A DNA stretch of 64,000 nucleotides from Alphaproteobacteria bacterium (GTDB lineage: Bacteria; Pseudomonadota; Alphaproteobacteria; UBA828): assembly GCA_965214705.1 (NCBI GenBank), contig CBDCCI010000001.1, forward strand, positions 643,104 through 707,103, read 5' to 3'. Positions within the stretch are counted from its first letter, which is position 1; each line of letters starts with the position of its first letter. Under the pieces are notes generated by a model. The model was given only the letters and a program-made list of their open reading frames with translations, was not told the origin of the DNA and ran no database searches. Positions 10,401-18,049 of the stretch are shown here, piece by piece. The position numbers were made by a program, and so were the translations under genes.

Positions 10401-12465
10401 CCGGAGACGGAACCGCCGCTGCCGCCTCGCTTGGTGCTTGACAAGGCGGAGAAGCGCGCTCTTCACGATCATGTGATCGCCATTGCGGAGCGCACGGTGC
10501 CGGCCGGAACGGATGAGGCGGTGATGGCAAGATGCCGTAATGGGGCCCGGCACCGATCGGCACCGTTGGAGCCTGTCGCGATGGCCGCAAATCGGGTGTC
10601 GTTGCCCTTACACGCTGAGCATGTCCACGGGGTCTTCCGACGTCTCAACGGTGCGCTCCGAAGGCGCCGGCGATACCGCTGTCGCCATCCGTTGCACCGA
10701 AGGTGCCGGCAACACCCGTCGGATGCTCGCTCGGGTTGGCTCCGTTACCGAAGAACGCCGCGCCCCACTCTCCTTGCCACCGGGCATCCGACCCGCCTCC
10801 GGAGACCTCCCCCCTCCACACTGACCAGTCCGATATGAACGCTGTCTCGAAACGCAGCTCCGTCGGAATGGACGCCGCACCATTTGCGGGGACGAAGTCA
10901 AAAATCACACCGTCCAATCTGCCATCGTCCATACTCGTCCCGAAGTCGGCCGTCAGTTCCACGTCAGCCTCGAAAGAGCCCACATCCGAGTCGTTCGACG
11001 ATCCGCCCGTATAGTACATCCCGATTGCATCGCCGACGTATATGGCGGTGCCGGTTAGCCTCTGCATGTGAGCCGGTTCGAACGGATCTCCGCCACCGGC
11101 AAGGACGCCGAAGTCGACCGGATCGAAGCTCGTAGCATCGTCCGGCAAATAGAGCCAGTATCCGAGGCTCAGATAATCGGCGGTCGGTACTTCGGCAGAA
11201 AAGGTCGGACGAAGTACTACTTCGTCACTGCCTGAGGCGGCAGGCGTGAACACGACATTGCCACCGTATGGATAATAGTACCCTTTCGGCTGGGCGAGTT
11301 CGAGCCAGCACGGTGATCCGCTGTCGCATGTGAACGTCCCCGATATGCCGTCCAACGTCCCGTCCAAGCCGTCGTCCGGTATCCGAACGCCTTGCCAGTC
11401 GTGACCCGGAAGAAGGTCTGGAATGTCGGCCAGAACGATGGTTCGGTCCGTCTCGCCGTAGCCAACCCAGGGTGCGCCCAATGTGTCGGAGTCGTCCGCA
11501 TCGGTCGCGAGAGTGACTTCAAGCGTGCCGCCACTGATGTACTCTTTCCTTCCCTGGAATACCTGCCAGCCATCCCCCAGACCGTGAACTCCGGCTATTT
11601 CAGACGTCGTGATGCTCCGTCCTTGCCAATCCACGAGCGGATCAGACGGCAGAGCCGCGCTTGTGTGCGAAGTCAGGAATTCCAGGGCATTTGCGTCGTT
11701 GCGGTAAGGAATGGCATTAGCGTACCGCAACGGCGAGGTCTGCACGACAATCGAGTGCCCGGAGCCGGAGATAGGGCTCTCAATACGCCAAATGTTGGTG
11801 TGGCCATCCGCCACACTGACGACCTCGGCTATGGCGTCCGCGGCGGAGGGCTCCTGCCGATCATCGCTTGCTCCGAACGCACCCGTGATGCCGTCGCGGT
11901 CGAAGACGCCGCCGACCTCCTGGTGCAACGGACCGTAGAACATGCCGCTGATCGTGGGATCCACTCCGTCGTTGAAGGCCCCGTTCGTAAGGGAAAGATC
12001 GTTCCAGAGCATGTCGGGGCGTGCGGTCCCCGCCGCCACATCATGGATGCCGGTGAACGAGACATCGATGTCGGGCTCGGAAAGATCGTCTACGTCGACC
12101 GTGGCGTCGCCGAGGATCAGGCGGGTGGTTCCGGGCTCGTAGCGCGTCACATCCAAGCCGACCATGACGCCTGTCCATGTGGCGGAGCCCAGGCCAGTCG
12201 GGTTCGTGCCCGTGTATCGGCCAAACGATACGCCGTCGGTGCTAAGTGTCCGGCCCGAAATGAATTGAGTGATTTCAGTGTGTTATGCTTCACTGGTTGT
12301 GTCCAAACAATCAGCGAGGCACAAGATGTGGACTGAAATCACTCGACCGAAGTATGACCGCACGGGGCTGCGTTACGCAAGCGATGGAGTGGACGCCCCT
12401 CCCGGCGGCATCGCGATGTGCCATGTTGGCGGTGGTGTTAACGCCAAGAGAGGAAAGGGGCGTCC

Positions 12466-13488
12466 ATGGACCAAGCTACCATGATCGGGATCGATCTTGC
12501 GAAGAACAGCTTTCAACTGCACGGCGCGGGCAGCGACGGGTCGGTCGTATTCCGCAAGAAGCTGAGCCGAGGGAAAGTGCTGGAGTTTCTGGCTTCCCAG
12601 CCGAGTTGCCAGGTGGCGATGGAGGCCTGCGCCGGCGCTCATTACTGGGGCCGGGAGATCGGCGATCTGGGTCACACGGTGAGGTTGATCCCACCCCAAT
12701 ATGTCAAGCCTTACGTCAAGCGTGGGAAGAACGACGCCGCGGATGCAGAGGCGATCTGCGAGGCGTCGTCGCGTCCGACGATGAGTTTCGTGGCGGTCAA
12801 GACGGCGGAACAGCAGGGTCGGGTGATGCTGTTCCGGACCCGCGATCTGCTGGTGCGCCAGCGCACCCAGACCATCAACGCGCTACGCGGCCATCTGGCG
12901 GAGTTCGGCGTTGTTGCGGCCCAGGGCCCCGCTCATGTCGCCCGCTTGGCGTCGGCGCTCGAGGATCCGGACTCGGGCCTGCCGGATGCGGTCCGCGAGT
13001 TGGGCAGCCTCCTGTTCGAACAGGTCGCCGGCCTCACCGAGAAGATCGACGGCCTGGAGAAGGACATCCATGCGAGCGCGCGGCAGGATGCGGAAGCGCA
13101 GCGCCTGATGAGCGTGCCGGGGATCGGCCCGATCACGGCGATGGCGATCCAGGCTTTCGCGCCGCCGATGGAGGGCTTCCGGCGCGGCCGGGACTTCGCC
13201 GCCTGGCTCGGCCTGGTGCCGCGCCAGCACTCGACCGGCGGCAAGCCGCGGCTAGGCAAGATATCGAAGATGGGCCAGCGCGATCTCAGGCGACTGCTGA
13301 TCACGGGCGCAATGGCGGTCGTCCGCTGGGCTGTTCGGCGGGGCCGGACGAGCGACCCGTGGCTCGCCAGGATGCTGATGCGCAAGCCGCGCATGCTGGT
13401 CGCCGTGGCGCTGGCCAACCGGATGGCGCGCATCGTGTGGGCGCTGATGACGAAGAAGGAGCGTTATCGGGCTCCCGCAGCCGCCTGA
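12466..13488 (+). CDS. IS110-family transposase (DEDD recombinase)
   Basis: IGIDLAK, MEAC, KNDAADAEAI, GLVPRQHSTGG. Confidence 0.95.
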   Translation: MDQATMIGIDLAKNSFQLHGAGSDGSVVFRKKLSRGKVLEFLASQPSCQVAMEACAGAHYWGREIGDLGHTVRLIPPQYVKPYVKRGKNDAADAEAICEASSRPTMSFVAVKTAEQQGRVMLFRTRDLLVRQRTQTINALRGHLAEFGVVAAQGPAHVARLASALEDPDSGLPDAVRELGSLLFEQVAGLTEKIDGLEKDIHASARQDAEAQRLMSVPGIGPITAMAIQAFAPPMEGFRRGRDFAAWLGLVPRQHSTGGKPRLGKISKMGQRDLRRLLITGAMAVVRWAVRRGRTSDPWLARMLMRKPRMLVAVALANRMARIVWALMTKKERYRAPAAA

Positions 13489-13800
13489 GAGGCGTCAAAG
13501 CGGGTAGTTGTCGGGGACGCGGGCAGGTCTGAGGAAAGGCAAGGGCAAACGGTCAATCGAGACGGGGTCGGGAAAACCAGCTTTCGGATGCAGAGCCTTC
13601 GAGCTCGCGTCGACCGTGGCGTCGCCGATCAGGCGGGTGGTTCCGCTCGAAGCGGTCACATCCAAGCCGAAGCGATATGGACCCGATCCGCGCATCTCCA
13701 TGAGGGCCCGCGGCGTGTGACGTGCCGCATTGAGAGGCCGGACACACGACAGCACCTGACCGCATGCGCTGAGCCGACCGAAGAAAATGCTTGCGTCAAA
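13489..13800 (+). ncRNA. Putative bridge/seek RNA region of the IS1111-type element
   Basis: Non-coding right end with the usual IS1111-like layout; contains cgc..aagcgat matching the target flank; exact RNA ends unknown. Confidence 0.6.
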
Positions 13801-16800
13801 CGGGGCGTCCACACACGATCTGAGCGATGCCGAATGGCGCGTGATCGAACCCCATATGCCGGCGCCGAATGCCCTGGGCCGGCCGAGGACGACGGACCTG
13901 CGGGAGGTGGCGAACGCCATCCTGTATGTCTTGCGCTCGGGCTGCCCCTGGCGGTTGCTGCCGAAGGACTTTCCGCCGCGTTCGACGGTGCAGCGCTATT
14001 TCGCCGCGTGGCGGGACGACGAGCTGTGGGCGCGCATCAATCACCATCTCCTGATGGCGGCCCGCGAGGCCGAGGGGCGCGAGGCCAGCCCATCGGCCGG
14101 CGTCATCGACAGCCAGTCGGTCAAGACCACGGAAAGCGGCGGCCCACGGGGCTTTGACGCGGGCAAGAAGATCAAGGGCCGCAAACGCCACATCCTCACC
14201 GACACCGGCGGCCTGCTGGTTGCCGCTCAGGTCCACGCCGCCAACATCCAGGATCGCGACGGCGCCCCCTCGGTGCTCGCGTCCATCCGCCACGCCTTCC
14301 CCTGGCTCCGTCATGTCTTCGCCGACGGCGCCTATGCCGGCCCCAAGCTCGAGGCAGCTTTGCAGCGGATCGGTCAGTGGACCCTGGAGATTGTCAAACG
14401 CCCGCACGGCGCACGAGGTTTCGACGTCCTGCCGCGTCGATGGGTGGTCGAACGCACACTGGCGTGGTTGAACCGCAATCGACGGCTCGCCAAGGACTTC
14501 GAGGCCACCGTCGCCACCGCCCAAGCGTGGCTCTTCATCGCCAGCGTTCAGCTCCTCACCAGAAGACTGGCAAGACATTGAAAATCAACACCTTATTATG
14601 GGCCGGACACTAAGGCTGGACGACGCCGGCAACATGCTTTCATCGCAGGAAGTAACACTTGGTCCCCTACATTGGAGGTGCTCTTGTACAATAAAGCTAC
14701 TGTACTCAGAATGCCCAACGTATACCTCGAAGCTGTCCCAGTTATCATCGTCAATACTATAGATAGAATCACCTTTGAATTGGGACATATTTACGCCGTT
14801 GTGTTCCAATATGGGCTTGACGGTGTAACCCTCCGGCAAGGAGTCAAGCGTCAGCCAATTCGTAGACCTAGGTTCCTGATCTATGGGCTGGCCTAATGGC
14901 TTCCATTCTCCGGTGTCCACCTGGTAATGACGGCCTTCAACCTCATGGGTGGTTTGCCGTGCCGTTCTGTTATAGAGGTTAAGGACTTGACCCTCCGACA
15001 GATCGAGCGTCGGGTTGCCGTCAGCGAAGCTCTGCCACTTCTCCAATAGCGGTGTCTCGGTGCCGCTGCCGTCGTCCGGCATTGGAAGGCGGGCTCCGAA
15101 GCTGCCTGTGATTTCCGCCGCGTTGTGGTGGAACGTGCCCGCGGCTTCCTCGTGGCCGGAGCCGAGAAAGGCTCCGTTTAGAATTCCAGCGGCGCCGTCC
15201 TCGAAGGTCCCGTCGGCCTGTGTCCGAAGATCCTCGAAGCCGAAGTCGGGTAGGGCACGCCGGCCGTCACGGCTCGCGACTTCCGAAAACGCCACGTCCA
15301 CGAGACTGGTGGGGAGGTGGAAGTCGACAGTGGTGCGCCCCTCGACGAATGGATTATCGAGGGGATCGTGGCTGTACTGGTATCCCAGCATCGGGCCGGA
15401 CCACTGCGCGCTTTCGTCCGGAAGGCGGCCCGCCACCGTCCCCTGGACGCCGGTCCACACCTCGAAGAGACCTGCAGGTGTGCCGAGCGTGTCGGTCCAC
15501 GCATCGCTGTACTTCTGAAAACCCGTCCCGAACGCGCCGTGCTCCATCGTCCCCATGTAACCATCGACGACATGGCGTCCCTGGCGGCCGTCGGTGGACG
15601 CAGCCGACTGCCGTTCGATCCGCACTAAGCCGATATCCTCGACGAGTCTCGCCGTATCTCTCCCGTCCCATCCGGCCGTTGACGCGAGCACGTCATCGCG
15701 CGTCGTCGCGGTCCAGTCGTTCCATTGACCCGCAGAAGCATTTCGCATCTCGCACGAGGATCCGGTGTCGCACCGATACCGGTGCCAGCCGTTGTCGACA
15801 GGATCCGCCGCTCCAATCCGATGGGACAAGCCCGCCAGGTGGTCGGCGGTGGCGATCGCCTCCTCGCGGCGGGGCCGGTCGTCGTGCGTAGCGCCAAAGC
15901 TCGCGAGCAGTCCGGCGCGAGGGTCGTGAAGCGTTCCCGCGACCTCCTCATGCTCCGGTCCGTAGAAATTCGCCGAGAGCGTCGAATTCTCGTCCGTTCC
16001 GACAATGGCGTTCTCCGTGAGCGCGAACGGGTAGTATAGAGCGCCGTCGGCAAATGCCTCGGGGTCTCCATCGGAATAGACCGCGAGCGAGGTGAAACTC
16101 GCGGTGCCGTCCAGGGTGCCGAGATCGACCGCCAGGTTGGCGTCTCCGGTGACCGGCGGCATCCAGTCGTAATCGATTGCCGCCCCGATCAAGCCACCCG
16201 CATAGCAGACCTTCCCGAACGAGTCCTCCAGCGGGTAGGACATGCCGAAGTCCCCGGTGCTTCGGTAGCCGAATGCGTCGGCGCCCACCTGCAGAAGATC
16301 GGTTACCTCGAGGGCATGCCAGCGATTGGCTGCGCCATCGTAGTGCGGTTGCGGGTCGGCCAGGTCAATCTGAAGATCGCGGGATACGCTGAGCGTGAAA
16401 CCGGCATGGTCTGTCCAGCCCGCGAGCCCGTAGGTCTCGGGCCGCCCGCTCTCCTCCGTCACGGTCATGCCGAGATCCGCGAGGAACGCGAAGTCGACGG
16501 CATGCGGCAGAAATGGCCGCAACGCCGCGTCCTGACTGCAGTACGCCATGACGGAGGCGCAGACGCCGCTGTGGCCGAAATCATATACGGTCGCCTCGGG
16601 GTCCCGCTCGCCCTCGACCCAGGCATGTGTGTCGGAGGCGTCCTGGAAAGGCGCGGGGCCGCCATGGAGGGCAACGACGTTGGGTCCCGTCCGGGTGCCG
16701 GATTCCGTGTCGGTGTAGGGTGTGTGGGGCACCGGCTCCGTGTGACCCCACCATGCGCCCAGCACATGCCCGATCTCGTGGGTGAGCGTTGCGAACAATC

Positions 16801-18049
16801 CGGCCTCGCCGGCCTCGTGCAGATATCCTCTGTCGATCGCCACCGATCCGAAATGGGGTTCCCAATCGCCGGGCGGCTGAATCCCCGGAATCGCCGAGCC
16901 GGCCACACGCAGGTCATTGTCCCGGACAGCGATCTCAAGCCCGGTGCTGACCTCGCCTCCGGCCCCGACGTAAACCTGAACAGGGGGACCGGGATAGTTG
17001 TTCAACCAGCCCTTGAGTTCGCCTTGTTCCCGCTCCCACGTGGACCATGTGTCGGCAATCCGGCGGCTCCAGGCCTTGCCGGCGCGTTCGAGCATGGCAC
17101 GGAACGCCGGATCGTCTTTCATCGACGGCCCGGCGCTCGAGAGGTCGAATGCGATCGAGAGCGTGTCGGCCGGTCCGCCTGTCCAGCGTCCATAGGTCAC
17201 ACCATGGCGGGTCCCAAGTACCCGAACCTCGTCGCCATCCTGAAGATCCGGGGCCGCCGGTGCGTCGTCGGAACTCCGAGCCGCCGCTTTGAGCGCCGTA
17301 AGGTCGGCCGCATCGGCGTCCGATGCTGACGTGCTCAGCGAAAGACCATCCGCGATGCTCCGAGTGCGCCGGTGCCCCCAATGATCGAGCAGGTCAGCCG
17401 CGGTCAGGTTGTTGCGGGGACGCTCGGCCAGACGCACACTGCCCGGGCGGGTCAGTTCGGGTGCGGGGGGGGGACGAGAAAAGAGTGTCTACCCCGGAGC
17501 GACCGCTTGAATCGGCTGGCTCGAAAGCCATGCCCACGTCGCTCGCTACGCCGTTCGTATCCGCCGTCGTTGCCGTTCCAGACGGAGCACCGCTTGTCAC
17601 AACTGTGGAATCGCCGGACGACTGTGCGCCGCTCTCCGTCTCCGTTGAAGGGAGCCCCCGCATGTCGGCGCTGGGTTGTTCGCCCGCGATGATGGTTTCA
17701 CTGCCAACAGATTCCGGGCGCTCCCAGCTCGTCACGGGTCGATCCGTGCCGGATCCCTGGCAGGCCGCGAGCGAGAGTGAGGCAACTGCCATGACAGGAA
17801 GGGGAGAGAGTCGCAAGGCGGGATTCGCGCGCACCATGTCATTTCCTCATCCGACAGATGTTAATCTGAACTTCCGGGGCGGGTATTGGACGGAGCTAAG
17901 TGCTTGCCAAAGCTGCCTGAGCCGACGTTTCGGGCGGTTGCGTACCGGGAATGCTACAGGCTCACGCCGAGCAGGTCGAGGACGTTGTTGGCGCTGTTAT
18001 CTGTGTCGGTTCGGTCAATTTCCGGTTCAGAACACACTGATCAACAGTC

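Follow-up and report, generated by a model that had tools for sequence, protein, structure and literature searches.

An IS1111-type insertion sequence in the DNA examined here (a window of 64,000 nucleotides) carries a 59-nt block copied from the lipoprotein gene that adjoins it, and the block lies inside the segment that is predicted to guide the element to its target. Most probably the insert is either an isolated lesion or an error of assembly, rather than a novel means of redirecting the guide. At present it amounts to one unverified lesion in a single copy, and nothing points to a function. If real, it would show a guide loop of the seekRNA or bridge-RNA type disrupted in nature by a templated insertion, the affected copy having only recently moved to a near-cognate site. 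It would then bear both on how much change such loops tolerate and on how guides change in nature. A by-product of the comparison is a well-supported guide map for this lineage of insertion sequences, in which six guide words track the flanking DNA.

A nested IS1111-type element

The setting of the insert is a large surface lipoprotein gene of the TbpB_B_D type on the minus strand (10645-17437), which has been split by an IS5-family element. Its two open reading frames (14585-17437 and 10645-12165, both on the minus strand) each carry a PF01298 domain according to Pfam. They read as the halves of a single gene of about 1470 codons, the interrupter being an IS5 element with a TAA duplication, and arithmetic on the coordinates of the reading frames places both in one frame once the element and one TAA are removed. 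The IS5-family element (12246-14610, plus strand; DUF4096 and DDE_Tnp_1 in Pfam) is flanked by this 3-bp duplication at 12243-12245 and 14611-14613, and holds the IS1111-type element within its transposase gene. Of the IS5 element, the assembly contains one copy at 100% and another at 95%. In an uninterrupted copy (G000:C3:1735967-1736904), window position 12385 directly abuts 13820, which fixes the borders of the inner element.

The inner element (12386-13819, plus strand) is 1434 bp long, or 1375 bp without the insert. Its transposase gene (12466-13488, plus strand) encodes 340 amino acids with DEDD_Tnp_IS110 and Transposase_20 domains (PF01548, 2.1e-14; PF02371, 1e-24), and the translation contains the motif GLVPRQHSTG. 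Subterminal inverted repeats of 11 nt, each the reverse complement of the other, lie 3 nt from the left end (12389-12399) and 7 nt from the right end (13802-13812). Downstream of the transposase gene is a non-coding region (13489-13819) that amounts to 272 nt without the insert. Insertion is site-specific and leaves no long target duplication, with AAGCGAT preceding all three copies in the genome. In a description of the IS1111 family (PMC11187229), the family is marked by a GL-P----S(t)G motif in a transposase of 330-350 aa, by subterminal inverted repeats and by a long non-coding region downstream of the transposase gene. By its domains, motif, repeats, non-coding region and mode of insertion, the inner element is a member of this family.

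Some further observations concern the ends of the element. The left junction reads GAT in every copy, unlike the right junction, where the final two or three bases vary (GAT, GTT, AT, GTC and others) among identical or nearly identical copies (window 13817-13819, L002, L003 and other loci). These varying bases are possibly a trace of mismatched cores at strand exchange. Within the non-coding region, 8 nt (13742-13749) are identical to the right terminus of the element (13811-13818), and in the distant copy on contig C1 the non-coding segment and the right terminus have changed together, with ATAGACG in both. The segment at 13742-13749 looks like a candidate donor-end guide in a second loop. 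A fourth relative of the element in the same genome (G000:C1:1390819-1396505), which is 74-79% identical, has an interruption of about 4.3 kb between element positions 1008 and 1014.

Guide segments and landing site

The block falls within a module of the non-coding region that resembles the target-binding part of a seekRNA or bridge RNA (13559-13698, plus strand). In a consensus fold of 11 relatives, a long stem (13559-13572 with 13682-13698) and a CCA/UGG pairing (13577-13579 with 13678-13680) enclose a single loop. This loop contains two variable segments and, between them, a small conserved hairpin, GAGC...GCUC (13593-13606, plus strand; fold columns 44-47 with 54-57). Covariation is seen in one of the 31 pairs, the other 30 being without compensatory change, and the single-sequence fold has a z-score of -1.06. 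The predicted fold appears compatible with the form of a seekRNA, but is unproven as one because nearly all of its pairs are invariant. A search of 12200-14700 against Rfam gave no matching family, the sole hit being a chance snoRNA match (E = 0.86).

The guide segments themselves can be read from the comparison of relatives. For 11 other elements, the end of the left flank was set by eye beside the segment that stands 5' of a conserved (A/T/G)TGGACCC. Six guide words occur in these elements (GTAAGCGAT, AAGTCCG.T, CTGTTGAT, GCG.CGAT, AAGTGCGAT and CCA.CGAT), and the word of each element agrees with its own left flank, over identical runs of 7-10 nt in nine of the 11 and over eight positions with one mismatch in the remaining two. 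This correspondence gives good support for reading the segment before (A/T/G)TGGACCC as the bottom-strand (B) guide. An RNA with the sequence of the top strand, as this segment has, would pair with the bottom strand. In the window copy, sibling alignment and flank comparison indicate that the insert has severed the first two bases of this 9-nt guide (GT, 13609-13610) from the other seven (AAGCGAT, 13670-13676), which are the same as the stretch of IS5 DNA that adjoins the element on the left (12379-12385). The block splits GT|AAGCGAT between positions -8 and -7. The sequence-only reading had placed it within the target guide of the IS110 guide RNA, and the manner in which this segment tracks the left flank among relatives bears that placement out for a guide RNA of the IS110/IS1111 type.

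A second variable segment lies 5' of the B guide. In 10 elements, 5-7 nt of its reverse complement can be matched by eye to the core and right flank. In the window element, the candidate top-strand (T) guide is the variable 5' part of the loop (13580-13592, plus strand). Its reverse complement contains ATCCGA, which by eye matches the core and right flank of the sibling copies. The putative top-strand match stands 5' of the bottom-strand match, an order of guides that has been reported for the seekRNAs of IS1111-type elements (PMC11187229). The window element is also like the IS1111 family, as its seekRNAs are described in that account (Siddiquee et al. 2024, PMC11187229), in having a DEDD transposase (340 aa here), subterminal inverted repeats, a long non-coding region downstream of the transposase gene and, by eye, two short target matches. 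It is unlike the described elements in the 59 nt of host DNA that lie within the bottom-strand match.

The bridge RNA of IS621/IS110 has an internal loop that presents one guide for each strand of the target. The predicted loop of the window element, with its two variable segments, resembles it, and a further likeness is found in the segment at 13742-13749, with its match to the element's own end. The RNA of IS621 is located upstream of the recombinase gene, with its guides in the opposite order to those of IS1111 (PMC11187229). The window element differs from IS621 in both respects, having its guide region downstream of the transposase gene and its candidate T guide 5' of its B guide.

The position of the window copy within the IS5 element can be compared with its predicted guides. 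It had been proposed that excising 13609-13669 restores an exact target match, cgc|aagcgat, but the sequence that results is absent from every sibling copy, and the proposal does not hold. The insert-free sequence is CGCGT|AAGCGAT. This guide matches the left flanks of the copies on contigs C3 and C1 over 9-10 nt (CGTAAGCGAT); with its own flank, cgcAAGCGAT, it agrees over 7 contiguous nt, the single mismatch being at -8. On the right side, the window target ATCTGA is by eye one base off ATCCGA, the complement of the 5' guide. With one mismatch in each guide, the window copy, to judge from these matches, sits in a near-cognate site inside the IS5 transposase gene, and would represent a natural off-target insertion.

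These matches also bear on the idea that the block has a use, local DNA having been captured into the guide loop either to re-aim the seekRNA or to provide an antisense RNA against the lipoprotein mRNA. The block does lie exactly at the edge of the guide in the target-binding loop, and its plus strand is antisense to the host gene. However, the new bases 5' of AAGCGAT match neither the element's own flank nor that of any sibling, so that guide reprogramming, as earlier suggested, is not supported. The guide is 7-10 nt long, not 59 nt, and none of the 37 other copies that span the site has an insertion there. A useful antisense RNA, the other suggestion, fares no better, as the host gene has already been broken by IS5 and offers no target worth silencing. 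Functional capture of either kind is regarded as very unlikely.

A related idea draws on the replacement of guides between related IS1111-type elements. Such change is limited to the guide part while the stems are kept, and the same holds for the 11 relatives with their six words. The block might be a snapshot of this natural turnover, in which guide DNA that resembles half a target breaks or stalls replication, is patched from nearby and is later trimmed to a new word. If true, this would explain the clean guide replacements between related elements. Those replacements yield guides of normal length that match the new target, unlike the 59-nt insertion in the window, which matches no flank. 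We consider turnover of this kind very improbable.

Origin of the inserted block

The original observation is borne out by alignment: on the same strand, the 63 nt of 13608-13670 reproduce the 69 nt of 12093-12161, with 6 nt missing and one substitution. The two sequences share identical blocks of 21/21, 17/17 and 16/16 nt. The six source nucleotides that the copy lacks are missing in three places (3+2+1), and the sole substitution is T at 12140 in the source and A at 13650 in the copy. No other such match exists in the 7.9-Mb genome (E = 8e-18, with the runner-up at E = 0.007), which upholds the derivation of the block from the adjoining lipoprotein gene. The source proper (12096-12160, plus strand) lies 1.5 kb from the block on the same strand, and is antisense to codons ~2-24 of the 506-aa reading frame that forms the downstream part of the split gene.

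The insert had been described as 61 nt long (13609-13669). The insertion itself stands, but comparison with other copies of the element moves its borders to 13611-13669 (59 nt, plus strand). In the sibling alignment, ...GAGCTCGCGT is followed directly by AAGCGATATGG..., and because the siblings run straight from 13610 to 13670, the CGT and the A at the edges belong to the insertion sequence. These bases form the junction homology, which consists of CGT on the left (13608-13610; 12093-12095) and a single A on the right (13670; 12161). The insertion is clean, with not one base of the element lost or duplicated, as 13610 and 13670 are adjacent in the siblings. Beyond CGT and A, no flanking homology was found between the element's site and the host site, since 46 of 500 and 287 of 500 shuffles reached the observed local scores. 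Gene conversion via flanking homology is rejected on these scores. A recombinase pseudo-site was also considered and dropped; by eye, the ends of the source resemble the target weakly (AAGC plus CC).

The block is private to the window copy. Element positions 1-1225 and 1285-1432 have an identity of 100% with the sibling on contig C3, and of 91% and 99%, respectively, with the sibling on C1, and in both siblings the two stretches are contiguous. When 49 genomes of the order were searched with the insert-free non-coding region, the insertion point was found to be spanned unbroken by 37 other matches, three in the same genome (G000) and 34 in 11 other genomes. Each of these aligns as a single segment over a subject length that differs from the query length by no more than 8 nt, and the window copy alone is split. 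In three of the genomes (G027, G028 and G041), several matches to the non-coding region start at query 171-178, just 3' of the bottom-strand guide, and the sequence upstream of the guide in these copies is different or missing.

The explanation that we favour, while judging it about evenly balanced between right and wrong, is a private, non-adaptive lesion, made by a real templated insertion in one recently transposed IS1111-type copy. A polymerase end at ...GCTCGCGT would have come off its template and found a new one 1.5 kb upstream by annealing through CGT. Some 65 nt of host DNA would then have been copied from an allele with A at 12140, before a return to AAGCGAT through the single A. Such an event would be a microhomology-mediated templated insertion with two template switches. 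It would have placed 59 nt between -8 and -7 of the 9-nt bottom-strand guide, on the 3' side of the target-binding loop. The seekRNA of the window copy would be expected to be weakened or dead, and the copy might still be mobile in trans, with intact RNA from its identical counterpart on C3. As for the three small deletions, they would be either slips during copying or uncorrected consensus errors in a patch beyond the reach of short-read polishing; they may be consensus errors even in some scenarios of a real insertion.

Templated insertion agrees with the uniqueness of the block among matches that are otherwise unbroken at the site, and with a junction homology of merely 3 nt and 1 nt, without flanking homology, to a source nearby on the same strand. 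That nothing was lost or duplicated is what a template switch would give, and a ligation chimera would not. The identity of the guide, which tracks the left flank in 11 relatives with six words, also speaks for it. Insertions of the FoSTeS/MMBIR type are short copies of nearby DNA that share 1-3 nt with their source at the junctions and have small slips close by, and are documented mostly in eukaryotes. The window block is like them as a nearby copy with 3 + 1 nt of junction homology and small slips, and unlike them in that Ku is absent. A Ku gene was looked for in the genome and none was found, so Ku-dependent end joining was discarded as a route, and the unavailability of classical bacterial end joining counts against a real insertion. 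We know of no templated insertion of this kind shown in the IS1111/IS110 family.

The single substitution provides information on the template. At 12140 the lipoprotein pseudogene is polymorphic, with A in the public sequencing run X1 and T in the assembly and in runs X2, X17 and X19. The contig with A is the only one at that position in X1 (depth 21.7/21.7). Within the unique parts of the 2.7 kb compared, no difference from X1 other than that at position 12140 is listed, and this position coincides with the sole substitution of the insert. A encodes Phe, which is the residue of both protein homologues, and T encodes Tyr; A is thus taken as the older state. The chance that a random miscall would place exactly A at the equivalent position is estimated at ~1 in 200, which argues that the template most likely carried A at 12140. 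The substitution would then be a natural allele, that of X1, restoring Phe, and real DNA of the A allele would have served as template.

An A-carrying template does not fit a simple copy of the neighbour as it stands in the assembly, with T. Copying in situ therefore needs an extra event, and this weighs against templated insertion. One of three circumstances is required: that the source has since recombined or changed from A to T, that the insertion predates the A-to-T change and the IS copy was lost elsewhere, or that DNA of two close variants was mixed. The same difference between A at 13650 and T at 12140 also fits an artefact, in which the assembly was made from two slightly different DNA preparations.

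The deletions could be accounted for if the block had been faithfully copied from a diverged lipoprotein allele or paralogue in which frame-preserving differences occurred naturally. They total 6 nt and leave the minus-strand frame open throughout the block, and one difference, A at 12140, is indeed a natural allele. However, a source closer than the adjoining gene was found neither in the organism's own genome nor in 43 other genomes of the family. In the two public collections searched, genome_contigs and metagenome_contigs, the exact 25-mer across two of the deletions does not occur. A protein search with lipoprotein residues 1-80 gave two hits among 60 candidates (P0001 and P0002, at 72% and 63% identity). 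Neither of them has the indels, both being full length at both indel sites, which makes the deletions unlike natural allelic variation. The stretch TASSG, which arises from a 2-nt and a 1-nt deletion as a compensated shift, resembles no homologue. Of the explanations weighed here, a diverged allele is the least likely.

All three deletions lie at a loop or mismatch of two small hairpins, the second of which becomes perfect in the copy. The energies of these hairpins (-10.2 and -11.2 kcal/mol) are ordinary, and 173 of 200 and 75 of 200 shuffles, respectively, fold at least as well.

Public sequencing runs and a possible assembly error

Four public runs (X1, X2, X17 and X19, of 21 found) were examined as Logan contigs, for which the depths per bin are coarse. 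Among the contigs listed from these runs, none covers 13611-13669, and in all four a contig joins 13610 to 13670. Similarly, a contig that joins 12381 to 13816, and thus represents the IS5 element without the inner element, is present in every run. In X1, this contig is identical to the IS5 arm of the window and shares a k-1 overlap with the host contig. Also in X1, the listed contigs explain the full depth of bins 12364-12454, at the junction of the two elements, and 13638-13728, in the right half of the block. Relative to the IS body, the 13610-to-13670 contig is 1.6-2.5 times as deep across the four runs, which is what the insert-free C3 and C1 copies would give without a third. These depths, together with contig adjacency in X1, suggest that the runs lack the window copy of the insertion sequence altogether. 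The runs would thus neither support nor oppose the insert.

The main competitor of a real insertion is an assembly or consensus artefact, to which we give substantial weight, although short of even. The block would be absent from the organism's DNA, or present in one or a few long reads, and would have survived polishing because no short read maps to it. The kind of difference between copy and source is what such an error would produce. Deletions make up nearly all of the differences (3+2+1 nt in 65-69 nt, ~9%), and outside the block the element is 100% identical to the C3 copy. The loss of six of ~65 template bases, set against 1373 perfect flanking bases of the element, resembles raw long-read error and tells against templated insertion, as does the lack of read support in the four runs. 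The occurrence of the 13610-to-13670 contig in all four, and the lack of the exact 25-mer in either collection, are likewise in keeping with an artefact. However, contigs of that kind are expected anyway from the C3 and C1 copies, and with the window copy apparently missing from the runs they are uninformative on the insert.

The position of the block is harder to reconcile with an error of assembly. To our knowledge, no pipeline step places a 59-nt same-strand copy of sequence from 1.5 kb away exactly between two adjacent bases. Nor was any other such patch found in the 7.9 Mb. A scan of the genome for short local repeats with indels returned 10 clusters, and the other nine look like ordinary repeats or paralogues. 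This indicates that the assembly has no systematic artefact of this sort, and adds to the case for templated insertion.

Two further observations were made on the assembly and the runs. On contig C3 (G000:C3:2731196-2731403), an apparent short-chain dehydrogenase gene contains a 203-nt tandem duplication whose two units are distinguished by one 1-nt deletion; the duplication may be genuine, or this may be another doubtful spot in the assembly. The left arm of the IS5 element (bins 12273-12363) has a summed contig depth of about six times that of the host in X17 and X19, and about one times in X1, and the copy number of this element seems to differ between close strains.
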